NCBI GenBank assembly: GCA_964603065.1
Contig: CAZRTL010000002.1
Span: 11,292 to 75,291, forward strand
Direction: 5' to 3'
Length of the DNA: 64,000 nucleotides
DNA from: Candidatus Woesearchaeota archaeon
GTDB lineage: Archaea > Nanobdellota > Nanobdellia > SCGC-AAA011-G17 > PNOQ01
Below are positions 43,040 to 59,955 of the stretch, piece by piece. The translations under genes and the position numbers were made by a program. Numbering within the stretch: position 1 is the first letter of the stretch; each line of letters starts with the position of its first letter. The notes under the pieces were generated by a model. That model did no database searches and was not told where the DNA came from. It saw nothing but the letters and a program-made list of their open reading frames with translations.

Positions 43040-43088
43040 ATTTATTTAACCTTCATTAATATAGTCAAACTTGGATTGGACTCTCTTT

Positions 43089-44003
43089 TTAAAGTTTACG
43101 TTTTAATTTTCTCTTAAATAAATGATTTTTTAATCTACACCACTTTTCAGTATTTTTTTCAAATAAAATTAGTGATTTTTTCAAATCTCTCACTCTCATA
43201 GAAATTCTATGTCTCCCATATTTATCAGATTTTTTATTAATGTGAGGATCAAATCCTAATTCAACAAGCATCGAATATACTTCTTTGATAAATCTTCCAT
43301 TTTTTAACATCAAAGAAACATGGCCATTATCTCTAGCAACTGAACCATCAAACATAAAAATTCCTCTCAAAAAAGCAATTTTTATATTTTTACTTGAATT
43401 TTTTATATATTCGGGAATAATAAAAATCTCTGTTTTACGGCCAACCGGCATTTTTAAAATTTTGCTAAAAAATTCAAAAATAACTCTATTGCTAATATAA
43501 ACCTCATAATGATTTTTTCTATCCTTTGGTGTTATTCCATATTCAAAGCAATGATTAAACCAATCACAAAAAGATTCTACTGCTCTCTGATATTCTTCTC
43601 TTAATACTAACTCATATCTAATGCAATCCCTATTATGTCTTTTTGAATTTCTTGTTCTCAAATGACCATCGGCCAAATGTGCTCCAATAATTTTTGCCAA
43701 CCTTACATCTAGTTTTTTAGGGAATTTAATTAATTTCATATCCCAATAACTCTCAAAATAATTTATATCGCTTGAAAAATCAATATTATATTTCTCTTTT
43801 AGTATCTTAAAAAATTTTAAAGGTATAGATCTTCTCCTATTCAACCATCTCCACAAAGTTCCTGGAATTATTTTCATATCTTTAGAAATATCTTTCTTTT
43901 TAAATGGAGATATTGCTTCTATTATTTTTTTATTAAATTCTTCATTAACTAAAACTTTAACGGTATTATCATCTGGACACATATCATAAATATTAAATTC
44001 CAT
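43089..44003 (-). CDS. Free-standing LAGLIDADG endonuclease-like protein with N-terminal HTH
   Basis: Two motifs IIGAHLADGH and FLRGIFMFDGS; HTH-like KKDISKDMKIIPGTLWRW. Confidence 0.85.
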   Translation of the reverse strand: MEFNIYDMCPDDNTVKVLVNEEFNKKIIEAISPFKKKDISKDMKIIPGTLWRWLNRRRSIPLKFFKILKEKYNIDFSSDINYFESYWDMKLIKFPKKLDVRLAKIIGAHLADGHLRTRNSKRHNRDCIRYELVLREEYQRAVESFCDWFNHCFEYGITPKDRKNHYEVYISNRVIFEFFSKILKMPVGRKTEIFIIPEYIKNSSKNIKIAFLRGIFMFDGSVARDNGHVSLMLKNGRFIKEVYSMLVELGFDPHINKKSDKYGRHRISMRVRDLKKSLILFEKNTEKWCRLKNHLFKRKLKRKL

Positions 44004-44042
44004 AAGATAAAAATATAAAAATTAGTTTATAAACAATTTCCC

Positions 44043-44072
44043 CGTGTGTGACAAGCTGACAAGAAAACTTTT
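44043..44072. repeat. Dispersed ~30-bp repeat, copy B (copy A 9449..9480)
   Basis: CGTGTGTGACAAGCTGACAAGAAAACTTTT. Confidence 0.6.
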
Positions 44073-44074
44073 GC

Positions 44075-44404
44075 TTAATTGTATAAAGGTCTTCCTTCAA
44101 AATGAATCAGATAAACTAACTCTCTAACACGATCCCTTACTTTTGGTTGGTCTGCATCGGCATAACTTAAACCGTGATAGTTTAACCAGTGTTTATTATC
44201 AGAAAAATCTTTTATTTTACCTTCCAAAAATCTAGAATCTTCTTCGTTCAAAAAACCAATACCCCATCTTGCCCACTTACCTTCTTCTTTTTCTAAAACT
44301 CTCTTTCCAGTAAAGGGAATAACATCTGCAGGTTCTTTTCTAATTGGAATTATTTTTCTTTCTCCAAAACCCAGGATATCTTTAATATTAATTATTTCTG
44401 CCAT
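44075..44404 (-). CDS. Hypothetical protein (ORFan) preceded by conserved upstream element
   Basis: 109-aa ORF. Confidence 0.6.
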   Translation of the reverse strand: MAEIINIKDILGFGERKIIPIRKEPADVIPFTGKRVLEKEEGKWARWGIGFLNEEDSRFLEGKIKDFSDNKHWLNYHGLSYADADQPKVRDRVRELVYLIHFEGRPLYN

Positions 44405-44432
44405 CTTTCTTTAAATTATAATATATTATACC

Positions 44433-44477
44433 CTTTATAAATCTTTCTATTTGTAACTACTGAATAAAAACAACAAA
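44433..44477 (-). promoter_or_regulatory. Conserved upstream element plus BRE/TATA, copy 5
   Basis: Sense strand TTTTGTTGTTTTTATTCAGTAGTTACAAATAGAAAGATTTATAAAG. Confidence 0.72.
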
Positions 44478-44509
44478 ATATAGATAAATTAACTATAAAC
44501 AACTATTGT

Positions 44510-44977
44510 ATGAAAAAACTATTATTTTTACTGATATTAATCTTAATTTCTTCTTGCACATACACTGGTGAAACAACTTTAGAAAAACCACTAGAAGGAC
44601 CTTATCTAGTAACAGAAGTAATTGATGGAGATACAGCAGACATAATAATCAACGGAAAAATAGAAAGATTAAGATTCTCTGGAGTTAACACACCCGAAAC
44701 AGATGAATGTTATTATCAGGAAGCAAAAGATAAACTAAAAGAACTAATTCTAAATAAAGAAGTTTACATACAACAAGATAAAACAGATAGAGGAAAATAC
44801 GGGAGACTTCTAAGATATATTTACGTAGATGATTTACTAGTCAACCAATATTTAGTGGAAAACGGCTATGCAAAAACCTACCATAAATATAAAGACGACA
44901 CTTCCAAATATGAATTATTAGCAAGATCAGAGGCCGAAGCAATAAGATTAAATCTTGGACTTTGGAAGAACTGCTAA
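44510..44977 (+). CDS. Thermonuclease (staphylococcal nuclease-like) lipoprotein
   Basis: VIDGDT, RFSGVNTPE, DRGKYGRLLRY, GLW; leader ending ISSC. Confidence 0.93.
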   Translation: MKKLLFLLILILISSCTYTGETTLEKPLEGPYLVTEVIDGDTADIIINGKIERLRFSGVNTPETDECYYQEAKDKLKELILNKEVYIQQDKTDRGKYGRLLRYIYVDDLLVNQYLVENGYAKTYHKYKDDTSKYELLARSEAEAIRLNLGLWKNC

Positions 44978-45427
44978 ACTAATACCTATTTTTCTAGCAT
45001 ACTCTTCGGACATTCTCAAATATTCCTTCATCTCATAAGTTGTGTAAATATCAATCCCCATTTTTTTTAATTGTTTTCTTCTACTTCGAGATACAGAGCC
45101 TGTGTGATGAATTGTGCAATCTTCTAAACTTCCGTACATATTGACTAGGACATCAGAAAGTTTTCTATTTGCCAAAACATGGGTTAATGTTCCCAAACCT
45201 TTTTTTCTTGCCCCAGATATATTCCTTAAAGGGTAGAAGTCAGTCCACAACACTGATTTTCTATTCATAAAAACACAAGCAGATGCATCCCCCATATCAT
45301 GATTTCCTAAAGAAAACTGAAAATAATATTTTTCCCTATTATAAAAACAATTATCTCTAAAAAGATTACCTCTCAAAAAAATTAATGGATTTTCCTGAAT
45401 TTCCTTTTCTAAATTTTTAAATTTCAT
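44948..45427 (-). CDS. Hypothetical protein with possible GNAT acetyl-CoA-binding motif
   Basis: ARKKGLGT resembles motif A; ATGA-coupled to ABC permease. Confidence 0.4.
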   Translation of the reverse strand: MKFKNLEKEIQENPLIFLRGNLFRDNCFYNREKYYFQFSLGNHDMGDASACVFMNRKSVLWTDFYPLRNISGARKKGLGTLTHVLANRKLSDVLVNMYGSLEDCTIHHTGSVSRSRRKQLKKMGIDIYTTYEMKEYLRMSEEYARKIGISLAVLPKSKI

Positions 45428-46635
45428 TCATACCTCAAGCTTTCAACGGGCCTTAATTCAGAAGCCCTCTTAGCAGGGAAATAACCTGCAATAACTCCAA
45501 CCAAAGTTGCAAATAGCAAACATCCAAAAATTAAATACCATGGAAATATGGGTTGCAAGGCCGCAAAACCAGATTCAGCAGATATCTTACCTCCAACTGA
45601 GGATGTAATATAACCGAATATAACTCCAACTAAACCTCCAATAAAGCCCAAAACACCAGATTCAAATAAAAATATATTCATAATACTCGAATTTCTAGCA
45701 CCAATACTTTTCATAACTCCAATTTCTTTAGTTCTCTCTAAAACTGCAGTGTACATTGTATTCATAATATTCACAGTAGCAATAATCAAAGAAATAAAAG
45801 CTATTAAAAACAAAATTCCATTTAAAACATTAATTACATTCGAAAATGTAGCCAAGGCATCCTCAAAAGTTTGAACAAAAAAATCTTCCTTTCCCTCTTC
45901 TTGTCCCTTAAACTTTCTTAGCTTGTCTTCAACCTTATCGGCCAAGTCACCAGAATCAACTCCACTAGCTGAACTTAGCATAATATACCCATATTTATTT
46001 TCTTTTTCAGGAAATAACTCTTCAAAAGTTTCTTCAATAACATAAAGATTAGAATCATCTCCGGGATTTCCAATCTCCTCATAGAAACCAACTATCTTGA
46101 AAGTTTCGTCTTTAATTTCAACTTTATTCCCCAATGCTAAACCCTTGCTAAAAATTTTACCATCTATTTGATAATTATAACCCAAAACAATTTTCCTAGA
46201 ATCTCCCTCTTTTAAATTTCTACCTTCCTCTATCTCAGTTGCAAAACCTTCTAAAATAAAATCAATATCTTCCGGATCAAAAGCAGTCAAAAAAGCATAT
46301 TTAGTTTCTCCTTTAGATTTAATATCTGAAATTCCCATATACATTCCAGCAACTTCATCAACCCCATTTATTTTTTTAACAAAATCTATGTCTTCTCCAG
46401 TTAAAAAAAAGTTCGGGTCTGTTCCAGGCGCTCCAGTACTTTTTGCTTGAATAAAGATTTTATCAACTCCTGCCTCTTCAGCTATAGTATCAATATAATT
46501 TTGAACTCCTAGACCAAAAGAAATAATTGCAAAAATAGCAGTAATACCAATCAAAATAGACAAAATGCTCAAACTACTTCTGAGTCTTCTATTCTTCAAA
46601 CTTTGTAGTGAATATTTTATCTCATCTATTTTCAT
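45424..46635 (-). CDS. ABC transporter permease (MacB/FtsX family)
   Basis: RRLRSSLSILSILIG, NIMNTMYTAVLERTKEIGVMKSIGA. Confidence 0.95.
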   Translation of the reverse strand: MKIDEIKYSLQSLKNRRLRSSLSILSILIGITAIFAIISFGLGVQNYIDTIAEEAGVDKIFIQAKSTGAPGTDPNFFLTGEDIDFVKKINGVDEVAGMYMGISDIKSKGETKYAFLTAFDPEDIDFILEGFATEIEEGRNLKEGDSRKIVLGYNYQIDGKIFSKGLALGNKVEIKDETFKIVGFYEEIGNPGDDSNLYVIEETFEELFPEKENKYGYIMLSSASGVDSGDLADKVEDKLRKFKGQEEGKEDFFVQTFEDALATFSNVINVLNGILFLIAFISLIIATVNIMNTMYTAVLERTKEIGVMKSIGARNSSIMNIFLFESGVLGFIGGLVGVIFGYITSSVGGKISAESGFAALQPIFPWYLIFGCLLFATLVGVIAGYFPAKRASELRPVESLRYE

Positions 46636-47864
46636 TTTACACTCCTCAATGATTCAACGGGTTGTAATTTCGAAGCCTGAACAGCTGGCAACGTACCAAA
46701 TATAGTTCCCAAAATAAATGAAAACAACAAAGCCCCAATAATTAACTCTAACGAAACGCTAGCTTGAATTAAATCTCCACCGAGAGTCATACGGCCAACA
46801 AAAGCCAAACCATAAGCCATAATCAATCCTAAAATAACCCCAATCACACCTCCAACCAATCCTAAATATCCAGATTCAATAAAAAATAGTCCAAATATTG
46901 TTTTGTTCTTAGCTCCAATACTTTTCATAATTCCGATGTCTTTCTTCCTCTCCAAAACAGAGGTATACATCGTATTCATAATTCCAATTCCACCAACTAA
47001 TAATGAAATAACAGCAATAATTGTAACAAATAACTGAACTCCAAAAAGTATATCATTTAACTGATCTAAAGTTTGCTGAGGACTTTCAACAACAAAATCT
47101 TCTTCACCTAATTTTACTCTCCTTTCTTTACGAAGTAAGTTCTCAATATCTTCTTTAACCTTATCAATTTCGTTTACATCTTTAACTTTAACAGCAATAA
47201 CATCAACTTGATTATCTCTAGATCTCAACTCATCCAACATAATATCTTCATTAACAAAAACAGCATTGTCAAAAATAAAACTCCCTTTTTTCTCTAAAAT
47301 ACCAACTACTTCATATTTGTAGTCATTCAATAAAACTCTATCTCCAACATTTATTGCTTTTCCAAATCCAACTCCATCATCATAAAAATTAAAGCCTAAA
47401 ACTAATTTTCTCCCATCACCATCTTTCAACATTCTACCTTTAGCAGCTTTCAAATTAGCCATTTCTTCAAGAGATTTACGATCAGAACCGGAAGGGATTG
47501 ACATTGCCAAACCAATTCCCAATACATCATTAAACTCCAATGTACCACTCTCTAAATACCTATCTATAGCTACCTCAACCCCATTTATTTTTCCAATTTT
47601 ATCAGTTAATTCTGGATCTAAAGGAGTTACAACTGCACTTCCAGGGGGACCAGCAAAATCTAATCCTTCAGCTCTAACTGATAAAGTATCAGAACCTAAA
47701 AATCCGAATTGAGAAGTAATACCGACCCTCAATCCTTCACCTAAACCAATTAAAGAAACAACGGCGGCTATGCCTATGAATATTCCAATCATGGTTAACC
47801 ATGACCGCAATCTTCTATTCCTTAAATTTTTAATAGCAAAGGAGAGAGAATCTAGAAAATTCAT
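46632..47864 (-). CDS. ABC transporter permease (MacB/FtsX family), paralogue
   Basis: RRLRSWLTMIGIFIG, GIMNTMYTSVLERKKDIGIMKSIGA. Confidence 0.95.
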   Translation of the reverse strand: MNFLDSLSFAIKNLRNRRLRSWLTMIGIFIGIAAVVSLIGLGEGLRVGITSQFGFLGSDTLSVRAEGLDFAGPPGSAVVTPLDPELTDKIGKINGVEVAIDRYLESGTLEFNDVLGIGLAMSIPSGSDRKSLEEMANLKAAKGRMLKDGDGRKLVLGFNFYDDGVGFGKAINVGDRVLLNDYKYEVVGILEKKGSFIFDNAVFVNEDIMLDELRSRDNQVDVIAVKVKDVNEIDKVKEDIENLLRKERRVKLGEEDFVVESPQQTLDQLNDILFGVQLFVTIIAVISLLVGGIGIMNTMYTSVLERKKDIGIMKSIGAKNKTIFGLFFIESGYLGLVGGVIGVILGLIMAYGLAFVGRMTLGGDLIQASVSLELIIGALLFSFILGTIFGTLPAVQASKLQPVESLRSVK

Positions 47865-49033
47865 TCTTCTTCGATTCTTCTCTTTTTTCTTATTCTTCTA
47901 ATTACAAAAAATCCTACTACCACAATAAAAACTAATATTCCCCAAACTGCATTGTTATTATCATCAATTAAGCCCATTTCTTTGGCTTCCTTAGCAGTAT
48001 AACAAGTCATAGGAACACTAAACAAGTTTTTATATTCTACACTGGAATCATCTTCATACATAACATATAATTTTAAGTCAACATTTTCTTCGCCAACAAA
48101 AATTTCATATGTTAAAGTTTCGTAATCATCACTATCAACTTGACCAATGTAAAGTTTGTTTGTAGTTATTAGATTATATGTAATATCCTCATACAGATCA
48201 ACTTCCAAAAACTCTGCATCTCCCATTCCTTTATTGATTATTTTCAAATCAACTAAGTTTTTTTGGCCACAAATTAAATAATTTGTTTCAGGAATAATAT
48301 CTATTTCTGGAAGTGCTCCTACTCTAACACTAATGAAGGATGTTTTTTGATAATCTTTACCATTTTCATCTTCATATTCAATTCTAATAGGAATTTTGTA
48401 ATATCCAGATGAAGCTTCATCCAAAGCAACTATGCTAATACTGACTTCTTCCAAATCTCTTGCATCCAAACTTCCGAACTCTTTATAGCTAACTGAAGTA
48501 TATGGTGCTAAAGGCAACCCAAATAAATCCAATTCAACTTTAATATCTTCTAAATCAGTATCTCCATCGTTTTCCAAGATTATTTTCAATTCTGCCTTTT
48601 CACCTTTCTTCAAAACTTGTGGGTCTGAACTCACTGAAATAATTTGTAAACTTACTTCATTATCAATATCAATTAAAAAATCTTCAGTTATCCAATCATC
48701 AGTACCTTCTAATCTATATGCAAATCTGATTTCACTAGCCAATTCACTAGCATCGTCTTCTACATCTACTCTAAAAGTAACTTCTTCGTTATCATTTCCA
48801 CTAATTTCTAATGTTTGTAAACTTCCATGTTCTAAATAGAATGGATCTTCAACAAACAACTTTACTTCGTAAACTCCAGCGTTACCCATATTGTAAACCA
48901 TGAAGTCAACGAAAAATTTTTCACCCGGTTCAACCGGATTAGGATTAACATCCTCTAAATCTATGTTTAATTCAGCATTTACTGAAACTAAAGTTATCAT
49001 CAATGCTAACATTATTAATAATAGTTTTTTCAT
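47861..49033 (-). CDS. COG1361-type S-layer/Ig-like domain protein
   Basis: Signal peptide, PNPVEPGE, Ig-like repeats, C-terminal TM and RRIRKKRR. Confidence 0.8.
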   Translation of the reverse strand: MKKLLLIMLALMITLVSVNAELNIDLEDVNPNPVEPGEKFFVDFMVYNMGNAGVYEVKLFVEDPFYLEHGSLQTLEISGNDNEEVTFRVDVEDDASELASEIRFAYRLEGTDDWITEDFLIDIDNEVSLQIISVSSDPQVLKKGEKAELKIILENDGDTDLEDIKVELDLFGLPLAPYTSVSYKEFGSLDARDLEEVSISIVALDEASSGYYKIPIRIEYEDENGKDYQKTSFISVRVGALPEIDIIPETNYLICGQKNLVDLKIINKGMGDAEFLEVDLYEDITYNLITTNKLYIGQVDSDDYETLTYEIFVGEENVDLKLYVMYEDDSSVEYKNLFSVPMTCYTAKEAKEMGLIDDNNNAVWGILVFIVVVGFFVIRRIRKKRRIEEE

Positions 49034-49707
49034 TTTCTCCCTCCGTTGATTGCTATTTCACCATCTTTTATCATCACTTGTTTGTGAGCATGATTAGCTA
49101 CACTCATATCGTGTGTAACCATAATAATTGTTTTTCCTTGTTTATTCAAACTATTCAATAATTCCATAACTTTCTCGCCAGTTTTAGTATCCAAATTTCC
49201 AGTAGGTTCATCGGCCAAAATAACATCTGGATCATTTGCTAATGCTCTTGCAATAGCAACTCTCTGTTGTTCTCCACCAGACATTTCACTAGGTCTGTGT
49301 TTTAATCTATGTCCTAAATTAACGTACTCTAATAATTCCCTAGCTCTTTTTAATCTCTTATTCTTAGAAATTCCTTGAAAATTCATTGCCAAAGAAACAT
49401 TTTCTAAAGCAGATAAAGTTTGAATTAAATTAAATTGTTGAAAAATAAAACCTATTTTTTTACCTCTTAAAACAGCTAAATCGGATTCTGACATTTTAGC
49501 TATATCCTTATTCTCCAAATAAATTTCCCCTTTACTAGGAATATCTAAACATCCAACCATATTCATCATAGTACTTTTTCCAGAACCAGAAGGACCAATA
49601 ATAGCTACAAAATCACCAGTTTCTATCTTTAAATTAATATTTTTTAGAGCCTCAACTCTAGCATCTCCTCTACCATAGGTTTTAAAAACTTGATTCAAGG
49701 TTATCAT
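49030..49707 (-). CDS. ABC transporter ATP-binding protein (LolD/MacB type)
   Basis: GPSGSGKST, MSGGEQQRVAIARAL, LADEPTGNLD. Confidence 0.97.
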   Translation of the reverse strand: MITLNQVFKTYGRGDARVEALKNINLKIETGDFVAIIGPSGSGKSTMMNMVGCLDIPSKGEIYLENKDIAKMSESDLAVLRGKKIGFIFQQFNLIQTLSALENVSLAMNFQGISKNKRLKRARELLEYVNLGHRLKHRPSEMSGGEQQRVAIARALANDPDVILADEPTGNLDTKTGEKVMELLNSLNKQGKTIIMVTHDMSVANHAHKQVMIKDGEIAINGGRK

Positions 49708-49750
49708 TTTAACTACTGCTGGATAGTATAACCCTTTTTAAAGTTTATGG

Positions 49751-49882
49751 TTAAGAATTCAGAGGTTTCTCTTCTCTAAAGCCACATTCTTTGCAATACA
49801 CAACAAAATAAAAACCATCAGAAAATTTATGTTGACCCTTATGCAATTTACTTCCACAATCTGGACAACTATCGCCTACCAT
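49751..49882 (-). CDS. 43-aa zinc-ribbon microprotein missed by ORF track
   Basis: MVGDSCPDCGSKLHKGQHKFSDGFYFVVYCKECGFREEKPLNS; ATG 3 nt after upstream stop. Confidence 0.8.
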   Translation of the reverse strand: MVGDSCPDCGSKLHKGQHKFSDGFYFVVYCKECGFREEKPLNS

Positions 49883-49885
49883 TAT

Positions 49886-51463
49886 CTACCAAACAACCCC
49901 TCCCATATCCTCAGGGATTGGTTCTTCTTCTATTTTACACGCACTATATTCCCACCTATCTTGATCAAAAGTAATATCACATACTTCACAATATTTGGCA
50001 GGATTATGTTCCCCATCTAAATAACATTCATTTGAAATAAAACAAGAGCTATCATCAATAATATAATCACAACTCCCACCATTACAATACTCGAGAGTAC
50101 ATATAAAACCATCATCCACGCAATCATTATCTAAATAACATTCTGGATCTCCAGAACTAATTCCCCTAGAAACATAATCTAAATCAACATAAAAAAAATC
50201 TTTGACACTAAATCCTTCCGGGTTATCAATTAAAACACCTGAAGTAGGCCTATAACCTCTCCAGTGAGAATCCATTTCTGCCGCGTAATTTATGTGCTCA
50301 TTACCCCAAATATTGCAATATTGATCATCATTTATTCCACAGCAATTTCCACAAACACCATCCCTATAATTTCTCTCCGCGTTTAGAAAATCTCCAGTAA
50401 CTGTGTCTATAGCTACCGGGTTAACAGCAAAGAAAAAACTGTTTGGACTTCTATGCCCGCTTTCAGTTGTTGGAAATAAATCTTCATACATTGGTTCATC
50501 AAAAAGATGCCCTTCTTTATGCGAAGTCATATAAGTGGCCTCACTGATAAATAATCTTGTTTTGCCTCCAATCAAAGGGTGAGTAGCAAGAATAGCAACA
50601 TTACACAATCTTCCAGTATTATGTAAATCGCTAGGTTCTGTTACAGTTCCAAAATGATTTTTCATAGCTCCCGTAGCATAAGCGGTATGTCCTTTCATTA
50701 AATGCAAATTGATAAGGTGATTTGCCTCTGAAACAACTGTAGGAAGGTATTGTGTTTCAGCAGTTGAACATTCGTAATCTGAAAAAATAATTGGTGAACT
50801 ATAATCTAGGATGTGATCATTCGAATCAACAATTTCAACCCCTGTGTTATAAGATTCCCATATTACTCTCCACCAAGAAACCGAGTGAGTATGTATCTCT
50901 CTAGAAACATCATATATTTTTATATTATTTGAACTAAGACCCATATCATTTATCAAAGAATCAACTACAACATAAGGCATTTTCGGATCTTGGTTGGCGT
51001 AGAAATAATAACTGTTCATATTCATTTTTATAGCTATTTTATCATTTCCGGGGGCCTCTCCAAGTAATTCAACCCATGCATCAATAACATTATTGGTTTG
51101 AGTTAGTTCCATCAAACCTTCTCTAAAAGTTTTATTATATTCTTCCAAATCAGTATTATCCACAAAATGATTACCTTCACCATCTATATAATCCCAATTA
51201 TTCAAATCTGGGTTATAAATTCTAACGACTTTATTTTCTGGAATATTATCGGCTAAAGGGACATACAAATCCTTATCTTGAGAATATTTAACTGGCAGAA
51301 TATTTTCGAAAACTGGGTAATTAACTTTCAAGCCATATCCTTGTAAATTATCAAGAATTGTTATATTGTTACTCAAAACATTACCATATAAAAAACCTGC
51401 AAAAGCTAAAACAACAATAAAAATCATAAAATATTTTCTATGATACTTAACACCTCTTTGCAT
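49886..51463 (-). CDS. Secreted DUF362-type protein with Cys-rich C-terminus
   Basis: N-terminal TM; KIAIKMN, EANHLINLHLMKGH, AMKNHFG, AVNPVAIDT; CVDDGFICTLEYC repeat. Confidence 0.75.
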   Translation of the reverse strand: MQRGVKYHRKYFMIFIVVLAFAGFLYGNVLSNNITILDNLQGYGLKVNYPVFENILPVKYSQDKDLYVPLADNIPENKVVRIYNPDLNNWDYIDGEGNHFVDNTDLEEYNKTFREGLMELTQTNNVIDAWVELLGEAPGNDKIAIKMNMNSYYFYANQDPKMPYVVVDSLINDMGLSSNNIKIYDVSREIHTHSVSWWRVIWESYNTGVEIVDSNDHILDYSSPIIFSDYECSTAETQYLPTVVSEANHLINLHLMKGHTAYATGAMKNHFGTVTEPSDLHNTGRLCNVAILATHPLIGGKTRLFISEATYMTSHKEGHLFDEPMYEDLFPTTESGHRSPNSFFFAVNPVAIDTVTGDFLNAERNYRDGVCGNCCGINDDQYCNIWGNEHINYAAEMDSHWRGYRPTSGVLIDNPEGFSVKDFFYVDLDYVSRGISSGDPECYLDNDCVDDGFICTLEYCNGGSCDYIIDDSSCFISNECYLDGEHNPAKYCEVCDITFDQDRWEYSACKIEEEPIPEDMGGVVW

Positions 51464-51514
51464 ATTTAGATAAGGCTTTTGTTTAATATAAACTTTTCTA
51501 AAATTGGCCCATCA

Positions 51515-54500
51515 TCAAAATAAACCTTTAATGAAATTAATTAAAACATCCCACCAAAGAACTCCAGGAGGAGAATATACTCCTTCAGGAGCGACCCAAT
51601 AACCAACCCCCGGTATCAATTCTTGATCAGTAACATCAACGTAACTACCAGCAACATATTCCCATACAGTATATATCCCAACCCCGTAAATATCTGTAAT
51701 TAAACCTTGTCTCGTAACACCAACTAAATTCCAGTTATTTGCATCCAATAAATAATCATATCCCTCTGGCCCATAACCATTCAAAGTCACATTTCCTCCA
51801 AAAAGAGAATAAACAACATAACCTCTTCCCATTTCCAAAGCATTAATTTCATCCAATCCTCTTTGGTAATACAATAACCATTTCATTCCTATCAAATCAT
51901 AAGCTAAAATAGCCTGGGCATCCAATTGTTCTAGCGATGTGTTTGTTACATTAATCGGAACGCTAATAAAATTTAGGCCAGGATTCAAACTAATATCAAA
52001 GGAGACAGCACAATCTCCATCTTGATCATCAACAAAACCATCATTATCATTATCAAAAGTGTCAAAACAATCACTCTCATTAATATAATAAGAACACTGC
52101 GTTAAATTATCATTACAATACTGTCCACTTAAAGAACAATCAGTATATATAGAACTGTCAAATATATTTTCAGTACATGAAGGAATTCCACTATCATAAC
52201 AACTAAAAACATGGTCTAAAATATAAGGATCTACTAGGACATCTTCTTGACATTCAGGTTGAAGGGTATCTGTAGAATTATATTGAGAACAATCTTCAGT
52301 TTGAGAAGAGTTCAAATAAATATCACAACTTGTAACATCACATAAATAATTATTGGTAAGAACATTTTCCCCAACACAAGATAAAGTGCTATTTGACCAG
52401 CCATCACTACATTCAGCAGTACAACTATCCGCATAACAAGAATATGTACAAGTACCGGCAGGAACACAAGTTGAAACACCACCATAATCATTTGATTTAG
52501 GACCACTATCTCCTTCGCATCCTAAGCACCAATCACACAAAGGGTTAGGGCTACATTCACCCTCCAATAAACCAGTACAATCACTAGCATAAACGTCAAC
52601 ACTATCAGTTTGATCAATTCCAGATTGATAAGAACTTGTTTCATCAATGCCACAAGTAGCTATTCTGGTACCTGCACCAGCTCCAACATTACAAGTAAAC
52701 TGATAAGTTCCAAAACCATCATCTCCACCCCCAGTACAACTAGTACCATCCAAATCGGCAACTACGCTATTTAAGGAGTAGTCTTGAACATCAACAACAC
52801 ACTCAATATCAACATTTGAGTTCTCAACAACGGAACTTTGAACAACATTAGCGCTCAAAACACTAACTGAACAATCTCCATCTCCATGAGCCCCATCCTG
52901 ATTATCATAGTCACTTTCACTATCACAGTCATTATCGAAGGTATCCGAACAATCAAAGGCACCAGTTCCCTCATACATATCTCCACCATAGGTATTCCAA
53001 GACCAACTACCACCAGTCACATAACAAGTATACTCATTAACACCGCAATCTAAACTTCCAGTATTAATCTGACATTCATTAGCAGCATTACAGGTCAAAC
53101 TTTGCCCACAATTATAATTGCTAGCAATCACATCACAATGTGCCCCTCCAGTGTTATCGCAAGAGTATTGGTTTCCATACTGATTCAAGAAAACTGTGTT
53201 AACACTACACGTAAAATTATTATCATTACAAGTGTACTGGGCATCACAAGAAATAAAATCACTAACGTAATCATTACCACTACAATAATATTCCGTAATT
53301 GAATCTCCAATACAAGTATCGTCATACTGGACCGAAGGGCAACTTACATCTCCAAGGGTACATAAATCATTATCCATTACACTACCAAAAGTCAGATAAA
53401 TCTGGCCACCATCACTATCTACACAACTATCAGTACAAGATGGAGGAGTATTAAATTGACAATCAGAAATCTCATCACAAGTCTCCGCACCATTACACCA
53501 ATTACCATCATCGCAAATAGTATCATCAGGTAAATTATTACAAGAATCTGTAGTTTCATTACAACTATCAACAGTACATGAGACTGAGTCAACACAATCT
53601 GGAACATTCTGAACTTGGCAATCTAATGTTGCACTACAATAATCTTCTCCATTACACCATAAACCATCATCACATAAACCATCATTTGTTATGTGTAAAA
53701 TACTATCTGTACTTTCATCACAAGAATCATTCGTACATCCAACTCCATCATCTACTACTGGTGGGATTCCTACTTGACAACCAGAAAACCCCCCACAAGT
53801 TTCCGGTCCATCACAAAATAAACCATTATCACACAACAAATCACCTTCATCATCAACTAAAAGACTACAATCATTATCATAACCGTCACACATTTCAATA
53901 TTTCCAGGGTAACAATCTGCTCCACATTGTAAAGGATCATCATCACAATCCGCAGGGCCACAATCTCCTCCATCTACATTGAAACCGTCACCATCATCAT
54001 CAGTACAGCCCAAAACAAAATTTAATACTAACTCCGGAGTCTCTAGATTATTTGCCCACTCACTAACATAAACATTAAAATAATGGTTAGCCATAATAAC
54101 AAAACCATAATCTAAACCATACTGATCAATTAAAGGTTTTATATCAAATTCTTTCCAGCCTAAAGAATTATTTGTAGAGTAAGATACTCCCTCTGCCAAA
54201 TCAAAAGCAGTATTTATGTCTCCACCAATTTCATCCCAACTATTAGCTCCAGTGCCGGAATAATCATACTCATTCCAAGTTGCTCCACTAGGACCATCCT
54301 GATTTCCAATTCCTGTTCCTTCAGTCCAATACTTATTCAAGGGATATATTGTAACAATGGAAGGATCCCCTCCGTCCCAAAAATTATTAATTCTTAATAA
54401 AGCACTCTGCAAAGTTTGACCAGCATAAGGAGCTAAGTTCCATTTCATTAGGATAGAAGTAGAGCTGCTCATGTCTAATCTCCCTTTTGCTCCCCAATTA

Positions 54501-56869
54501 TAATCTGGAGACGTAGAGCTAACTTTAGAATCAACCAAATCATTAAAATCTAAAGTAATCGAACTAATGGGTTCACTAGTAGTAAAAATTCCGCTATCTG
54601 TATTACAATTTTCCCGATTATCACAAACAGTTAAATCATAACTATACTGAGTATTTGGCCCTAACCCTAAAACACTAGCTGTCCTATGAAACTGATCAAT
54701 GTTAACATCAAAACTATCAACAGATTCGTTAATACTTAAACTATAATTAGTATTTTCATCAGTCTCCCATTCAAAAGTAGCAGAATTAGAAGCAGGATAA
54801 ATGTTGACATCAACATAATTCCCATCAAAATCAACAAATACGGGAGGAGTTTGATCTTTATTAACATTTAAAATTGCAGATTGTCCATTAATTAAAGGGT
54901 CAGAAACTATTTCGGCAGATATTATATACTCCTCAACATCGGGAGTAGCATCATTGTCTAAAATCCACTCTGAATTCCACAAATAACTGACCTGATTCGA
55001 GGTTATATTTAAAATCGTACTTAAAGGCTGATAAACAGCTTCATCATCATTAACAGCCAAACTGACCTGTCCTCCCAAAGTACAACCCGAAGAGTTGACA
55101 ACTAAACCAACTTGGCTAGGTTCCTCAATATCTGTAATGATCATATTTATATCACTTGCACTTCCCCAATATACATCATTTATTACACAAGAAAAACAAT
55201 CAGAGTCAGAAGTATCGGTCAAAGCATCACAATCATTATCAAAAGTATCGGAACAAGAAAGTTCAATTCCATCTTCATAAGAAATATTATGACTTAAGTA
55301 AGTACTAACATCACACCCGGGCCAATTGCCACCAGCATCACAAGTTTCTTGCGAACCTAAACAAACACCATCTTGTAAAGGGCAGTTTCTTTGTTGTCCA
55401 GGAGTACACGTAGCAGTTTGATCAAGAATAACATAATCTATACCTATAAAACCTGCATTAGTAACATATTCGTCATAAGATTCATAAACTCCCAATCCGT
55501 ACATAGATTCTGCATCTGCCGCACAATCCATTCCAATACCCCCATCAGGATAATAATCACTAGTTCCACTACTAACATCTTCTTCCTCAGCAATGTAATT
55601 GGCAACACTATCTATAGCAACGGGATCCGTACCAACAAGAATCAAAGCAGGAGGTTCACCCGCACCAAATGAACTCCAACTACTAGGAATATCTGCAGGA
55701 CCAATAGTTGAAGTCGCACTATGTATCTGAGCGTATATTCCATCAATAATAACTAAATGAGTTTTATCCCTTAAATGAGTATTAGCATTAACAGCGGCAC
55801 ATAATTGGGCAGAGTGAAGATTTTGGCCACAACTCCCCCCATTTCTAGAATAACATCCATATCTACTTCCATCAATGATATTTAACTGAGGAGTACCCAA
55901 TCCCTGGTTCTTTAAAGAGAATGTCCCACTATCACTAATTGTAGATTTATGATTTTTTAATAATGCTAAATCAATTATATAATCTGATTCGCTAACAACT
56001 CTTGGCATATAATTAGGATTTGCCCCAAGATCGTCAAAAATATAGGCACCAACATCTGCCTGGCCTAAATCTGAATAAGCAGTTACGTAATTAATATAAT
56101 TATCATCTATCGGAGCAGAGGTCCCACCATAATCATTAAAATAATTATCGGCTCCTTGAAAAACACCAAAATAATAATTATGTTCAAAACGGTCATCTGC
56201 AGACAATTTTTTATATAATTCAACGGGCCTAGGATGAGACACATCATAGAAATAAATATCATTTAAATTAGCACCCAAATGTTGGTTTAACAAATCAGAT
56301 AGTGCATCTATCATAGCAGGATTGTTATCATAGATATTATTAAGCCCATTATTATAATCCAAGCCTGCACTCCCAGCATTATTATTAACTTTTATTGCAA
56401 TTTTCTTATTGCTTGTTGCATAATCTGGAAATAGTGTATTCCAAGCAGAACTAGGAGTCACCTCCCCCGATAATTCTATTACAGCATCATCCAACATTTG
56501 TTTTATAGTGGTCCTATCATAATAATGGTAATAGCAGTTTACATTACTTGTACAATAAGGTTTGCCTGGAGAAGTGATCCAATCTATTTGACCATCCCAA
56601 AAACTACCATCTCTTTTTGCAGAATCAGAATTTCTAACTAATACAACCTTATTTGATGGGAGGGGTGCATATAATATATTTTCTCTAGGTTCAAAAGAAA
56701 GTAACGTTCTTAAAGTAGGGTAATCAACTTCTAAACCATAGCTTTCTAGGGACCCGACAATAGTCATATCAGTACTAGTCAAATAGTTTCCATAGAAAAA
56801 TCCAGCAACTCCCAAAACTACAATAAAAACTATAAAATTCTTCCTAAAGTATCCTACCCCTTTTTGCAT
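51515..56869 (-). CDS. Giant (~1785 aa) surface protein: DUF362-type domain, Asp/Cys-rich Ca-binding repeats, Fn3-like and DNRLRE-like domains
   Basis: KIAIKVN, LLKNH, FSLKN, VGTDPVAIDS; DGYDNDC and DTFDNDCD repeats; CDDGLWCNG repeats; CVDSDGG; start MQKGV by analogy with paralogue (56878 possible). Confidence 0.78.
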   Translation of the reverse strand: MQKGVGYFRKNFIVFIVVLGVAGFFYGNYLTSTDMTIVGSLESYGLEVDYPTLRTLLSFEPRENILYAPLPSNKVVLVRNSDSAKRDGSFWDGQIDWITSPGKPYCTSNVNCYYHYYDRTTIKQMLDDAVIELSGEVTPSSAWNTLFPDYATSNKKIAIKVNNNAGSAGLDYNNGLNNIYDNNPAMIDALSDLLNQHLGANLNDIYFYDVSHPRPVELYKKLSADDRFEHNYYFGVFQGADNYFNDYGGTSAPIDDNYINYVTAYSDLGQADVGAYIFDDLGANPNYMPRVVSESDYIIDLALLKNHKSTISDSGTFSLKNQGLGTPQLNIIDGSRYGCYSRNGGSCGQNLHSAQLCAAVNANTHLRDKTHLVIIDGIYAQIHSATSTIGPADIPSSWSSFGAGEPPALILVGTDPVAIDSVANYIAEEEDVSSGTSDYYPDGGIGMDCAADAESMYGLGVYESYDEYVTNAGFIGIDYVILDQTATCTPGQQRNCPLQDGVCLGSQETCDAGGNWPGCDVSTYLSHNISYEDGIELSCSDTFDNDCDALTDTSDSDCFSCVINDVYWGSASDINMIITDIEEPSQVGLVVNSSGCTLGGQVSLAVNDDEAVYQPLSTILNITSNQVSYLWNSEWILDNDATPDVEEYIISAEIVSDPLINGQSAILNVNKDQTPPVFVDFDGNYVDVNIYPASNSATFEWETDENTNYSLSINESVDSFDVNIDQFHRTASVLGLGPNTQYSYDLTVCDNRENCNTDSGIFTTSEPISSITLDFNDLVDSKVSSTSPDYNWGAKGRLDMSSSTSILMKWNLAPYAGQTLQSALLRINNFWDGGDPSIVTIYPLNKYWTEGTGIGNQDGPSGATWNEYDYSGTGANSWDEIGGDINTAFDLAEGVSYSTNNSLGWKEFDIKPLIDQYGLDYGFVIMANHYFNVYVSEWANNLETPELVLNFVLGCTDDDGDGFNVDGGDCGPADCDDDPLQCGADCYPGNIEMCDGYDNDCSLLVDDEGDLLCDNGLFCDGPETCGGFSGCQVGIPPVVDDGVGCTNDSCDESTDSILHITNDGLCDDGLWCNGEDYCSATLDCQVQNVPDCVDSVSCTVDSCNETTDSCNNLPDDTICDDGNWCNGAETCDEISDCQFNTPPSCTDSCVDSDGGQIYLTFGSVMDNDLCTLGDVSCPSVQYDDTCIGDSITEYYCSGNDYVSDFISCDAQYTCNDNNFTCSVNTVFLNQYGNQYSCDNTGGAHCDVIASNYNCGQSLTCNAANECQINTGSLDCGVNEYTCYVTGGSWSWNTYGGDMYEGTGAFDCSDTFDNDCDSESDYDNQDGAHGDGDCSVSVLSANVVQSSVVENSNVDIECVVDVQDYSLNSVVADLDGTSCTGGGDDGFGTYQFTCNVGAGAGTRIATCGIDETSSYQSGIDQTDSVDVYASDCTGLLEGECSPNPLCDWCLGCEGDSGPKSNDYGGVSTCVPAGTCTYSCYADSCTAECSDGWSNSTLSCVGENVLTNNYLCDVTSCDIYLNSSQTEDCSQYNSTDTLQPECQEDVLVDPYILDHVFSCYDSGIPSCTENIFDSSIYTDCSLSGQYCNDNLTQCSYYINESDCFDTFDNDNDGFVDDQDGDCAVSFDISLNPGLNFISVPINVTNTSLEQLDAQAILAYDLIGMKWLLYYQRGLDEINALEMGRGYVVYSLFGGNVTLNGYGPEGYDYLLDANNWNLVGVTRQGLITDIYGVGIYTVWEYVAGSYVDVTDQELIPGVGYWVAPEGVYSPPGVLWWDVLINFIKGLF

Positions 56870-56904
56870 ATAATCCATACGACAACCATAAATTATAAAT
56901 CTTT

Positions 56905-57222
56905 CTATTGAAATAATCTAAATCCTTTTGCCCCAAATATTAAACCAACTATAAATAGCACCAAAATAATAACAAAACCCCAAAATAATTTAGAAAAAAT
57001 TATTTTTTTCCAAAAAATAACAAAAACATTTGTTGAGCTAGCAAAAAAAGTTTGAACACTAAGAACCATCTGGTTCAAAACAGTAACTTGGCAAGGATAC
57101 AAAAGTCTAGAAGGTCTAGCCCCCACTCTAAAAATAAACCAAAATATTAAAACAACTAAAATAAAAATTGGGGAGTGTCTAACTTTCTTTTTAATACCCT
57201 TTAGATTTATTTTTAATTTCAT
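56905..57222 (-). CDS. Small 2-TM protein with RPSRLLYPCQ motif
   Basis: WFIFRVGARPSRLLYPCQ between two hydrophobic segments. Confidence 0.7.
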   Translation of the reverse strand: MKLKINLKGIKKKVRHSPIFILVVLIFWFIFRVGARPSRLLYPCQVTVLNQMVLSVQTFFASSTNVFVIFWKKIIFSKLFWGFVIILVLFIVGLIFGAKGFRLFQ

Positions 57223-57262
57223 TACTAAACAAAACGCCCCCGGAATTTAAATTTCTATCTAT

Positions 57263-58504
57263 TTACACTTTTTCATAGTAGGGCCATGGGGTCTCACTAG
57301 GATTTGAAAATAAACTCAATCTAGTTCCCCCAGTATATGGAGTTGTTGCATAAGCAAGGGAAATTAAAACTTCATTTCCAACGCCAACAGCCCCATTAAT
57401 TGCGGCCATCCAATCGTTATAGCCATTATAATTATAACTATGCCCAGTATTCCCAACGTACCAATCTCCATACTCTCCATTTTGTCCATCCCCGGGATCC
57501 CCATCAATACCATATATCAAAATATTGTCATATTTGAAAACTTTTCTATAATACTTATAATTAGGGTCGCCAATTTCAGCAAATAAAGTATCAAAATTTA
57601 TATAATTCCTTGTGTCTATTGTTGGACCTTCGAAGGTTCTTCTTGTAATTTTATTTAGTGTTTCAGGATAATCAGAATTATTATAAAAATAAGGTTCCCT
57701 TTCGCCTTGCAAATTAGTTCTATATTTTCTTGCTCCACCATTAACAATTAAATCACTTTTACCATAATAATCAACAAATAAATTATGCAAATCATATTCA
57801 AATTGATTCATTCTAGGATACTGCTGATTGATCCACCAATCATCTTTTTCTTCTTGGGTATGTCCTCTCCCAGGCCATGCTAAATCCATTTCTTTCTCAG
57901 ACATCGAGTCATCCCAATAATTTGGAACATTAGCCCAATCATCCAAAAAAATTCCATGGATAGAAGTGCCATCTGTCCTCAATTCCGCCAAAAAATTATC
58001 AACCATAACTAACAAATCATCAAAGTACTCTTGAGTTTGAATAAAACAAAACGGAGAGCCACTACTCCTTTGATGAGAAGCAATATTTGGCATACCTTTC
58101 GGGAAATTAGCAGTAACAAAATTTAAAGGAACAGGAATTACATCTTCTACTCGGCTTAAGTTAGAAGATTTACCCCAAATATCAATATAAAGGAAGGTTT
58201 TATTTTTATTTTTATTATCAATATAATAAAAAGTTTGTTGACTAGTAACAACATAATCATACCATGAATAAATCTCATCTTCAGAATAACCAAGATTATG
58301 ATCAGAATCATGAATTGTATCACTATATGTAAAAAGAAGGGTAGAATAATTATTTACTTTAGGTAACGTTTCAGTAGGGATTTCAGGAGTAACATCGGGA
58401 GTAACTTCTTCTCTTAAAAAATCTTGAGAAACAAAAACAATCCCTAATAATAAAACTCCTATGAATAATATTAAATATCTATCCTCCTTTCTCAAATAAA
58501 ACAT
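57263..58504 (-). CDS. Putative secreted TIM-barrel glycoside hydrolase
   Basis: N-terminal TM; HGIFLDDW, LIVNGG, TFEG; family not assignable. Confidence 0.5.
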   Translation of the reverse strand: MFYLRKEDRYLILFIGVLLLGIVFVSQDFLREEVTPDVTPEIPTETLPKVNNYSTLLFTYSDTIHDSDHNLGYSEDEIYSWYDYVVTSQQTFYYIDNKNKNKTFLYIDIWGKSSNLSRVEDVIPVPLNFVTANFPKGMPNIASHQRSSGSPFCFIQTQEYFDDLLVMVDNFLAELRTDGTSIHGIFLDDWANVPNYWDDSMSEKEMDLAWPGRGHTQEEKDDWWINQQYPRMNQFEYDLHNLFVDYYGKSDLIVNGGARKYRTNLQGEREPYFYNNSDYPETLNKITRRTFEGPTIDTRNYINFDTLFAEIGDPNYKYYRKVFKYDNILIYGIDGDPGDGQNGEYGDWYVGNTGHSYNYNGYNDWMAAINGAVGVGNEVLISLAYATTPYTGGTRLSLFSNPSETPWPYYEKV

Positions 58505-58553
58505 AATTAAAATTAACAAAAGTTATTTAAATAGTTTACCTTAATGTAAAAAA

Positions 58554-59126
58554 ATGAAGTTTTCCAAAAAGGAAATAAATGATTTATTAAAATCATGGAT
58601 TGCAATTTCATTAGCTTTTGCCATAGTTTTTAATAGGGATTTATTTTCTTCGACTTTCTTATCGACTTTACTAATGTCTTCGATAGTCGTAGGAGGGGCA
58701 TTTTTACTTCACGAAATGGGTCATAAATTTATGGCTCAGAAATATAATTATTGGGCAGAATTTAGATCTTTTGATAAGATGTTGTTACTAGCAATATTAA
58801 TGAGTTTCTTAGGTTTCGTATTCGCAGCTCCTGGAGCAGTTATGATTCATGGTTACCACATAACGAAAGAGAAAAATGGAAAAATTTCGGCAGCAGGACC
58901 TTTAGTTAATTTTATTTTAGCATTATTCTTCATAATCCTTCTTTTATTAGGAATAAATCATGAAATAGTAACTTTTGGTATATGGGTAAATATTCTGATA
59001 GGATTATTCAATATGATTCCATTTGGAAATTTTGATGGTAAAAAAATATTATCATGGGACAAAAAAGTGTACTATTCTATGTTAGCTTCAGGTTTTGTCC
59101 TTTTGTTCATAAGAGGATTGGTCTAA
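58554..59126 (+). CDS. M50 family (site-2 protease-like) membrane metalloprotease
   Basis: LHEMGHK, ISAAGP, NMIPFGNFDG. Confidence 0.92.
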   Translation: MKFSKKEINDLLKSWIAISLAFAIVFNRDLFSSTFLSTLLMSSIVVGGAFLLHEMGHKFMAQKYNYWAEFRSFDKMLLLAILMSFLGFVFAAPGAVMIHGYHITKEKNGKISAAGPLVNFILALFFIILLLLGINHEIVTFGIWVNILIGLFNMIPFGNFDGKKILSWDKKVYYSMLASGFVLLFIRGLV

Positions 59127-59205
59127 AGAATCTTCTAAATTTAATTCTCTCATCAATAAAGACAAAAAGAATAGATTTATATAAATTTCATTTCTTCAAA
59201 AAAAG

Positions 59206-59361
59206 ATGTCACTTCAAAAAAGATGTCAAGAACTTGAAAGAGAAATTAAACAAGAATTCTCCCCACAAAGAGAGGTATCAAGTTTTAGAGAAGTATATCA
59301 AATTTATTCTTTAATTGAAGATTATGTACTAACAAAAATTTCAAAATTATTTTCTAAATAA
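59206..59361 (+). CDS. 51-aa hypothetical microprotein missed by ORF track
   Basis: MSLQKRCQELEREIKQEFSPQREVSSFREVYQIYSLIEDYVLTKISKLFSK; TATA (TTTATATA) ~25 nt upstream; stop abuts rps7 stop. Confidence 0.55.
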   Translation: MSLQKRCQELEREIKQEFSPQREVSSFREVYQIYSLIEDYVLTKISKLFSK

Positions 59362-59955
59362 TTATCTACTAGAATCAGCTTGTCTTTCTGATTCTAATTT
59401 CTTAGAAATTGCATTACTTGCTTGATCTATTTTATGAGCAGCCAAAATTTCATCAGCCAATGTTCTAGGTATTTTTTTCTTTGAATTAAACGATTTAGCA
59501 TAAGCACCTTGTACCATCCATCTAAGAACTAAATCAACTCTCCTCAAAGGAGATAAATCAACAGCTTTAGAATATCTTGCTCCACCATATTCAATACCAG
59601 TAACTTCTTCCCTTGGAGCTCCATTCTCTAATGCAGTAATAAAAACTTGAATAGGATTTTGTTTAGTTTCTTTCTCAAGAATCTCAAAAGTTTCTTTAAC
59701 AATTCTATAAACATTACCAGATTTTCCAGTACAATGATAAGAACTTAATTTATGTTTTTTACCTTTATGGCCTGGAACCATCAATTTATTCATTAATCTT
59801 TCAACAACATGATTCTTTTGAACCCAAATTCTCTGACCAGAAGCAGCTCTTCCACCAGTTCTAGGAATCAAAACAGGGTCGATATGAATGTAAGGAACTA
59901 ATGCCTTTTCCTTAACTTTAACAGTTTCAACATCCCAAATATTAAATAGCTTCAT
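59362..59955 (-). CDS. rpsG: 30S ribosomal protein uS7
   Basis: [37 protein letters not shown]. Confidence 0.97.

Follow-up and report, generated by a model that had tools for sequence, protein, structure and literature searches.

DUF362 (PF04015, COG2006) is a large family of protein domains that often stand beside carbohydrate-binding, dockerin and type-IX-secretion modules. Our literature searches found no paper assigning a function to it, as an earlier, sequence-only reading of the DNA analysed here had already stated. Among the closest described proteins are DUF362-CBM9-dockerin proteins of unknown function from beaver and moose gut enrichment metagenomes (PMC5742341), and DUF362 shares the Pfam clan CL0471 with the N-terminal domain of LarA (PMC11770544). 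The LarA racemases and epimerases (DUF2088/Lar_N, nickel-pincer nucleotide) are cytoplasmic enzymes. We analysed a stretch of 64,000 nucleotides from a Candidatus Woesearchaeota archaeon (assembly GCA_964603065.1, contig CAZRTL010000002.1, positions 11,292 to 75,291 of the forward strand), referred to below as the window, which encodes two DUF362 proteins of 1787 and 525 amino acids and, on the same strand, a membrane protein of 105 amino acids (56905..57222, minus strand). Sequence comparisons indicate that this small protein is a membrane module which elsewhere is fused to the N-terminus of DUF362 proteins and which is detached here.

The sequence-only reading had listed a protein with two transmembrane helices and the motif RPSRLLYPCQ, and we found this open reading frame (ORF) as described, with two strongly hydrophobic helices (approximately residues 18-35 and 79-98) and a weaker middle segment (46-71) in the hydropathy profile. 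At the end of the first helix the protein carries the signature W28-x3-R32-x4-P37-x-R39-x2-Y42-P43-C44-Q45 (57088..57141, minus strand). In 14 module sequences W, P, R, Y, P, C and Q of this signature were invariant and the other R was nearly so, and the signature was also invariant in alignments of 85 and of 65 genome-derived ORFs. Within the window, RPSRLLYPCQ is found a single time, against an expectation of 0 from 100 shuffles. When the 105-amino-acid protein was compared by phmmer with 1.84 billion (1.84e9) representative proteins, 28 matches were obtained. Ten of these were long proteins (383-1519 amino acids) matched over their first ~100 residues, and in all ten a DUF362 domain lies downstream of the module; most of the remaining, short matches were N-terminal pieces of such fused proteins, broken at contig ends. 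A profile comparison by hhalign of the 105-amino-acid family with the fused family aligned columns 18-56 with 97.7% probability (E = 2.3e-12). The protein itself had no match in Pfam, tried up to E ≤ 10, or in NCBIfam. As the 14 module sequences gave only scattered single Pfam matches, to unrelated membrane families, we conclude that there is no Pfam model for the module, and literature searches found no functional study of its YPCQ motif.

To what extent the fused form is distributed was seen in a scan of one genome per prokaryotic species with a degenerate DNA pattern of the signature, in which at least 116 genuine occurrences were present among the 120 stretches listed. Among the matches listed, the motif is located at approximately residue 13-170 of ORFs of mostly 470-1500 amino acids, and the hosts include Planctomycetota, Bacteroidota, Verrucomicrobiota, Bacillota, Chloroflexota, Bathyarchaeota, Thermoplasmatota and Micrarchaeota. 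DUF362 was matched by Pfam in 60 of the 65 signature ORFs scanned (best E = 1e-31), so the module is essentially exclusive to DUF362 proteins. Many of the 65 ORFs end in further domains, namely Dockerin_1 (13 ORFs), sorting domains of the type IX secretion system (T9SS; 9 ORFs), PKD, FlgD-Ig or CBM9, which argues that the fused proteins are exported. The gut proteins of PMC5742341 likewise join DUF362 to carbohydrate-binding and surface-targeting modules, in combinations that recur among the fused members found here; they differ from the window proteins in being bacterial and encoded by a single gene, and the N-terminal module is not described in that paper. The 102 genes flanking the fused genes gave matches to 170 different Pfam families; none of these recurred as a partner, Lar genes were absent, and this lack of a conserved neighbour is consistent with module and DUF362 being self-sufficient.

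The fused proteins are the nearest counterparts of the window proteins. Examples are a 1519-amino-acid protein of a Candidatus Micrarchaeota metagenome-assembled genome (MAG; locus L074, protein P0033) and many proteins of Pirellulales, Phycisphaerae, Bacteroidales and Bathyarchaeota MAGs. Besides the signature module they share the DUF362 core: an alignment of both window DUF362 paralogues and their relatives (A4) matched 65 fused members with 100% probability over 290 columns (columns 129-436, E = 3.2e-41). As in the window, extracellular-type domains follow, with CBM96 in P0037, Cys-rich repeats in P0033 and a C-terminal domain of the window type in P0044. The window differs in that the module is a separate 105-amino-acid gene, that the DUF362 proteins have a signal-anchor helix of their own and a lineage-specific leader, and that one module gene serves a locus with two DUF362 genes.

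Module and DUF362 are encoded by separate genes not only in the window but also in the related loci L001, L004, L131 and L132, and all related archaeal loci recovered show the split. In L001, L004 and L131 the reading frame of the 105-amino-acid gene is uninterrupted, with 61-83% identity, and each time the gene lies directly upstream of that for the giant DUF362 protein; in the window, 26 nt separate the two genes. In the more distant lineage represented by L132 the module gene encodes 138 amino acids, 45% identical, and a DUF362 gene begins 16 nt further on, again encoding a protein with a hydrophobic N-terminal helix of its own. We considered that the 105-amino-acid ORF might be left over from a former signal or anchor region, in decay and without a function of its own, as its shortness, its hydrophobicity and the lack of a family annotation would allow. 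Against this, the reading frame is intact in all independent assemblies, every invariant signature residue is retained at 61-83% identity, the module is intact even in the lineage at 45% identity, and its gene is always located 16-36 nt upstream of a DUF362 gene. We therefore regard decay as very improbable. The comparisons indicate that the split is real and maintained and that the module is under selection as a gene of its own. The earlier suggestion of a split leader is borne out in a stronger sense, as the fission of the gene for a widespread two-part protein, and that one archaeal lineage keeps the module as a conserved gene of its own argues that it is more than a signal peptide. In a MAFFT alignment the last helix of the fused form was seen both at the C-terminus of the 105-amino-acid protein and at the N-terminus of the giant and 525-amino-acid proteins, which suggests that this helix may have been duplicated at the fission.

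Short module ORFs were also present in two bacterial MAG loci, L018 (3051-5668) and L037 (2669-4387), where the next ORF follows after 0 nt and 19 nt, respectively. A neighbour scan found DUF362 in two flanking ORFs, probably those next to these module ORFs. Frameshifts or errors of assembly are the probable cause of the short ORFs; independent fissions are a less likely possibility.

Both window proteins that the sequence-only reading had called DUF362-type exceeded the gathering score of the Pfam model (PF04015, 24 bits) with their N-terminal domains: 32.9 bits (E = 8.4e-8) for the 525-amino-acid protein and 27.9 bits (E = 3e-6) for the 1787-amino-acid protein. The orthologues P0008 and P0009 of the latter scored 26.6 and 36.7 bits. 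The 525-amino-acid protein (49886..51463, minus strand), which was characterised by Pfam, BLASTP and comparison with its 83%-identical orthologue P0001, consists of a leader, the DUF362 domain and a short Cys-rich C-terminal domain. It is paralogous to the giant protein over ~440 N-terminal residues (BLASTP, 2e-28). The leader MQxGVxYxRKxF...YGLxVxYP...LYxPL is indeed common to both proteins, their first 75 residues being the best-matching stretch of the alignment. The previously listed zinc ribbon was also present, as a 43-amino-acid ORF with the motif CPDC...CKEC (49751..49882, minus strand) that begins 3 nt past the stop codon of the 525-amino-acid gene; in L001 and L131, ORFs 75-90% identical to it follow the last DUF362 gene directly, within a few bases. 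Across the 65 distant fused members, K, N, H, K and D positions of the DUF362 domain are nearly invariant.

A relationship to LarA was suggested by structure prediction. An AlphaFold 2 (AF2) model of the N-terminal 440 residues of the 525-amino-acid protein was of low confidence (pLDDT 55.7); in a Foldseek search with this model, the top 11 PDB matches were LarA-type nickel-pincer racemases (best E = 2.3e-4, TM-scores of ~0.3), in agreement with the common clan of DUF362 and the LarA N-terminal domain. Some members of the fused family also showed weak sequence similarity, with a Lar_N match in one of the 65 distant members (5.6e-5) and two sub-threshold matches to malate racemase models in an NCBIfam search with eight members. 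The window proteins differ from LarA in that they are exported and have no match to the Lar_N and NPN-racemase models of Pfam and NCBIfam. Profile searches of the PDB with the DUF362 alignments found no LarA, and no cofactor-synthesis genes were seen within the 64-kb window.

The larger of the two DUF362 proteins, announced in the sequence-only reading as a protein of ~1785 residues, is encoded by an ORF of 1787 codons (51515..56878, minus strand) and has orthologues in P0008 (77% identity) and P0009 (38%). From the N-terminus it comprises a signal-anchor helix and leader (residues 1-75), the DUF362 domain with insertions (~75-485), a Cys-rich linker and Ig/FN3-like segments, the latter being weak matches in an orthologue. 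Further along follow a CBM96-like segment (768-960), an acidic region rich in Cys (961-1620) and, last, a domain of ~150 amino acids at the C-terminus. The CBM96-like segment (53999..54577, minus strand), which had been described as DNRLRE-like and glycan-binding, is 30-38% identical to segments of P0009, of the L131 giant and of P0037 that match the CBM96 model PF24517 (best E = 9e-16). The founding CBM96 binds alginate (PMC9971899). Support for this part of the earlier description comes from the three relatives, whose aligned segments match CBM96; the window segment itself has no such match. Sequence and profile searches of the PDB with the giant protein and with the CBM96-like alignment gave no usable relative.

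The acidic region (52019..53998, minus strand) was delimited by composition and motifs and is the most variable part between relatives. Most Cys of the giant protein are located here, 70 of them within residues 901-1700, and the ~650 residues of the acidic region include almost no K or R. Three C[SF]DTFDND motifs were found, at 1310 and 1604 in the acidic region and at 542 in the upstream linker. The region gave weak matches only, to MopE, acidic-disulfide-repeat and EF-hand models; these were below threshold, and the proposed Ca-binding stalk was not confirmed. Extracellular display as such is supported by the signal-anchor helices and the extracellular-type domains; of the binding functions proposed with it, glycan binding rests on the relatives' segments and Ca binding on the sub-threshold matches.

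The C-terminal domain (51518..51997, minus strand; L-x-P-G-x-N-F-I-S-V-P ... G-Y-x-V-Y ... W-N-L-V-G-V ... G-Y-W-V) was recognised by BLASTP and has no Pfam match. It also ends the 585-amino-acid protein of L001 (E = 1e-17) and the L004 orthologue of the 418-amino-acid protein described below, as well as the distant fused DUF362 protein P0044 (E = 2e-7); in L131 it is a separate ORF of 179 amino acids. That two products of the locus have this domain in common suggests a shared docking or targeting function.

Two further observations concern the giant gene. Its ORF may begin at MDYMQKGV (56870-56878); the paralogue and the L131 orthologue begin at MQ(K/R)GV, and a TATA-like box lies ~22-36 nt upstream of the second ATG. 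The true start is probably M4, and the transcript possibly has little or no leader. A His-rich ORF of 134 amino acids lies antisense inside the gene (53578-53982, plus strand); we take it as most likely a side effect of the Asp/Cys-rich coding strand rather than a true gene.

How the parts of the locus are conserved was seen from a comparison with the L001 orthologues. Over its DUF362 part, residues 81-490, the giant protein has 92% identity to its counterpart, compared with 81% for the ribosomal protein S7, 84% for S12, 73% for RpoA'', 60% for NusA and 52% for L7Ae. Four-fold degenerate sites are 65% identical in the DUF362 part vs 46-62% in the comparison genes; as this identity is similar across the genes, the high amino acid identity points to purifying selection and not to a very recent transfer. 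On these figures the DUF362 domain is more strongly constrained than the neighbouring ribosomal proteins. The DUF362 (putative LarA-fold) region (55424..56656, minus strand), supported by hhalign and by its identity to L001, shows the highest conservation within the giant protein and is for this reason most likely its working part, either catalytic or ligand-binding.

The same comparison bears on whether the giant protein might be chiefly an adhesin of an episymbiotic archaeon, with DUF362 as a binding module instead of an enzyme and with the variation of the genomic island described below resulting from host or virus pressure. Such a role would fit the large size of the protein, its acidic Cys-rich repeats and its CBM96-like segment, a distal Cys-rich part that is only 72% identical to L001 and contains an indel block at residues 1001-1100, and an island whose content varies between relatives (GH43 in one, a Pel9A-like beta-helix or laminin-G in others, one integrase nearby). 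Against it stand a DUF362 part that exceeds ribosomal proteins in conservation and the near-invariance of the K, N, H, K and D positions in distant members. Furthermore, free-living Planctomycetota, Bacteroidota and others commonly have members of the module-DUF362 family, which is therefore not specific to symbiosis, and the symbiont status of this archaeon is putative. A predominantly adhesive role is in our view rather unlikely.

Upstream of the module gene lies the gene for a secreted or anchored protein of 418 amino acids (57263..58519, minus strand; start likely at M6, 58504, where the sequence-only reading had placed the end of the locus) with an N-terminal hydrophobic helix and a predicted core of alternating beta and alpha elements. 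Its orthologues have 406-800 amino acids and usually an extra C-terminal domain. The orthologues of L001 (585 amino acids) and L004 (682 amino acids) keep a C-terminal domain of ~170 amino acids that the window protein has lost; the homologues P0011-P0019 carry TSP3 repeats only. The domain is located at 9100-9691 in L001 and at 9297-9836 in L131, and the counterpart site in the window is 57223-57262. As it is present, absent or separate among these loci, it appears to have been gained, lost or split within one gene family. One homologue, P0016 (800 amino acids, TSP3 repeats), occurs elsewhere without DUF362.

The 418-amino-acid protein had been proposed to be a glycoside hydrolase (GH). It had no Pfam match even at E ≤ 10, no NCBIfam match and no relevant match among PDB sequences and profiles (best E = 0.33, an imine reductase). 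An AF2 model of low confidence (pLDDT 56, pTM 0.63) showed alternating strands and helices and gave nothing in Foldseek at E ≤ 1e-3; the weak top of the list was dominated by TIM barrels, many of them GHs (beta-amylase of GH14, GH20, GH5, GH18) along with Cwp19, sugar epimerases and aldolases. D193 (in GIFLDDW) and E297 (in R-x-FEGP) are invariant in nine homologues. With no family match and only these TIM-barrel neighbours, the proposal was not confirmed as an assignment; a GH-like TIM barrel is a reasonable guess from the model.

Following the zinc ribbon on the same strand is an operon with overlapping stop and start codons (45424..49707, minus strand) that is also present in L001 and in the P0001 contig. 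It encodes an ATP-binding cassette (ABC) ATPase (49030-49707; ABC_tran 119 bits, best NCBIfam models MacB, LolD and FtsE), a CARDB/COG1361-type protein with a signal peptide and a C-terminal transmembrane helix (47861-49033; CARDB 37 bits vs a cut-off of 22.7, and a weak match to the NCBIfam model of a putative S-layer protein) and two permeases (46632-47864 and 45424-46635), both recognised by Pfam with MacB_PCD (76-89 bits) and FtsX (74-80 bits). All four were as the sequence-only reading had named them, and every ORF it had listed was found on the minus strand where it had been placed. The operon resembles MacB/LolCDE-type (type VII) ABC transporters in its MacB_PCD and FtsX permeases and in the best matches of its ATPase. 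It differs in that the ATPase and the two permeases are separate polypeptides, that a CARDB/COG1361 surface protein is included, and that an adaptor or outer-membrane partner is absent in this archaeon. Overlapping the end of the last permease gene is a 159-amino-acid ORF (44948..45427, minus strand) for which a GNAT-like nature had been suggested. We found no family for it (no Pfam match at E ≤ 10, no NCBIfam match, best PDB sequence an unrelated enzyme at E = 0.15), and it is not conserved: the 161-amino-acid ORF at the same position in L001 gave no BLAST match and is not homologous.

The sequence-only reading had described all these genes as one 13-kb surface-system locus. If they formed a single system, the DUF362 proteins and the glycoside hydrolase would be exported, assembled or serviced by the MacB-type exporter together with the COG1361 protein. 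The genes do lie on one strand with short gaps, the DUF362 genes and their partners adjoin the ABC operon in the window, in L001 and in the P0001 contig, and MacB-type transporters are known to drive extracytoplasmic processes. The related loci do not bear this out. In L131, at the chromosomal site of the window locus, the order is a 411-amino-acid protein, the detached C-terminal domain, the module, a DUF362 giant of 1781 amino acids, the zinc ribbon, a transglycosylase and a nuclease, with no ABC operon after these genes. The operon is also absent from the JGI contig 1-qt6JRi, where genes of 318, 134 and 107 amino acids and a DUF362+CBM96+Pel9A-like giant of 2358 amino acids at the same chromosomal site are followed by Nop10. 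In L001 an HTH_10 gene and five small ORFs intervene between zinc ribbon and operon. Among the 120 distant module-DUF362 genes listed, two have a MacB-type permease nearby, and none has a 418-like, COG1361, zinc-ribbon or C-terminal-domain protein. TATA-like elements ahead of individual genes and the unproven assignment of the glycoside hydrolase add to these points, and a single system is accordingly unlikely.

We conclude from the gene comparisons that the region is made up of two adjacent units. The related loci keep a 418-like protein, the module, one or two DUF362 proteins and the zinc ribbon, which we therefore take as the conserved core; the ABC/COG1361 operon, absent or separated in these loci, is a separable neighbour. 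In identity to L001, the permeases (90-92%) and the ATPase (83%) exceed the COG1361 protein (51%), and such a contrast with conserved flanks fits the fast evolution of an exposed protein. The TATA-like elements, AAAG(A/T)TTATA(A/T)T, are located 20-35 nt upstream of the giant and the 525-amino-acid genes, which is weak evidence at 31% G+C, and similar AT-rich boxes lie upstream of the 418-amino-acid, 105-amino-acid and ABC genes. A scan for sigma-70 promoters and terminators gave nothing above shuffles; the sigma-70 model is not applicable to archaea. Metatranscriptomes contained two contigs of ~180 nt only, which map to the COG1361 gene and to the giant gene, respectively, and hint that the locus is expressed.

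The window has a G+C content of ~31% and was assigned to an archaeon by the presence of an intron-bearing tRNA and of the gene string RpoB-RpoA'-RpoA''-L7Ae-NusA(KH)-S12-S7 ... EF-2-EF-1alpha (40874-59955), which is also found in L001, L004 and L131. A 115-nt Rfam tRNA match (9124-9238, minus strand; 44 bits, no ARAGORN call) is consistent with an intron-containing archaeal tRNA. Between S7 (59362-59955) and EF-2 (40874-43039), ~16 kb of other genes are wedged in, and the same site is occupied by an island in every related contig recovered. A divergent gene for a 190-amino-acid M50-family intramembrane metalloprotease (58554..59126, plus strand), identified by Pfam and synteny, forms the conserved left border in all related loci, and the content varies past this gene. 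Contents seen in the relatives were GH43-containing or Pel9A-like giants, a laminin-G protein, an HTH gene and, in one contig, a phage-type integrase; the site behaves like a hot-spot for surface-protein genes. The right border in the window, L001, L131 and the P0001 contig is a gene for a staphylococcal-nuclease-family protein (44510-44977, plus strand) with a lipoprotein-signal-like N-terminus (...LILISSC). Directly upstream of EF-2 lies a free-standing LAGLIDADG ORF of the homing-endonuclease type (304 amino acids, 43089-44003, minus strand), in place of which the relatives have other small ORFs. Near-identical DNA was present in marine and seawater metagenomes, and a metagenome scan with the close alignment returned four loci only, all duplicates of L001 and L004.

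Taken together, we favour the reading, with a probability of roughly 0.55, that the module and the DUF362 proteins form a membrane-associated surface enzyme or binder directed at glycans or the cell envelope, and that the MacB operon is an independent neighbour. The first unit (49751-58519) would be a cell-surface cassette consisting of the 418-, 105-, 1787- and 525-amino-acid proteins and the zinc ribbon; the second (45424-49707), the MacB-type exporter operon with its COG1361/CARDB protein, would merely adjoin it in some genomes. In this archaeal lineage the ancestral gene would have been split, each DUF362 protein having its own signal-anchor helix. The N-terminal helix would insert the DUF362 proteins into the membrane with the DUF362 domain on the outer face, where it would work together with, and presumably bind to, the module. 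The Arg/Pro/Tyr-Pro-Cys-Gln loop of the module is predicted at the outer membrane surface, as export of the DUF362 domain of a fused protein requires three passes when the K/R-rich N-terminus is inside. The CBM96-like module, the acidic Cys-rich repeats and the C-terminal domain would serve to target the complex, either to a glycan or to the envelope of the cell.

Several points weigh against this reading. Only two of the module helices are strong by hydropathy, and the three-pass topology is assumed; the physical association of module and DUF362 is what we infer. The short, hydrophobic MAFFT alignment behind the helix duplication was not reproduced by hhalign. Both structure models, of the 525- and the 418-amino-acid proteins, are of low confidence (pLDDT ~56), with DUF362 Foldseek TM-scores of ~0.3, and the term enzyme for DUF362 is drawn from fold and conservation. 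The CBM96-like segment of the window has no Pfam match of its own at E ≤ 1. In T9SS and dockerin members the module may be cleaved, as such proteins must leave the inner membrane, and may be only an unusual export signal. Finally, the ABC operon is adjacent and on the same strand in three related genomes, and a lineage-specific functional link between it and the cassette may exist.

A further-reaching reading, which we offer tentatively as possible and well short of probable, is that module and DUF362 together represent a very widespread, unrecognised class of extracytoplasmic enzymes of the LarA fold. Their substrates would be glycans of cell surfaces or of the environment, in which they might, for instance, epimerise or oxidise the acidic sugars of polymers. 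Such enzymes would require the module, either as a subunit or for their maturation, and the single invariant cysteine of the module would lie on the outer side of the membrane.

The DUF362 family itself was already known. What is new is, first, that a sharply conserved membrane module, described in no domain library, heads exported DUF362 proteins and, second, that this module has been split off as a conserved gene in an archaeal lineage. The pairing of module and domain, with one invariant Cys and the two Arg of the signature, offers a handle on the DUF362 family. If the enzyme reading is true, the natural gene fission would be direct genetic evidence that the module acts in trans.

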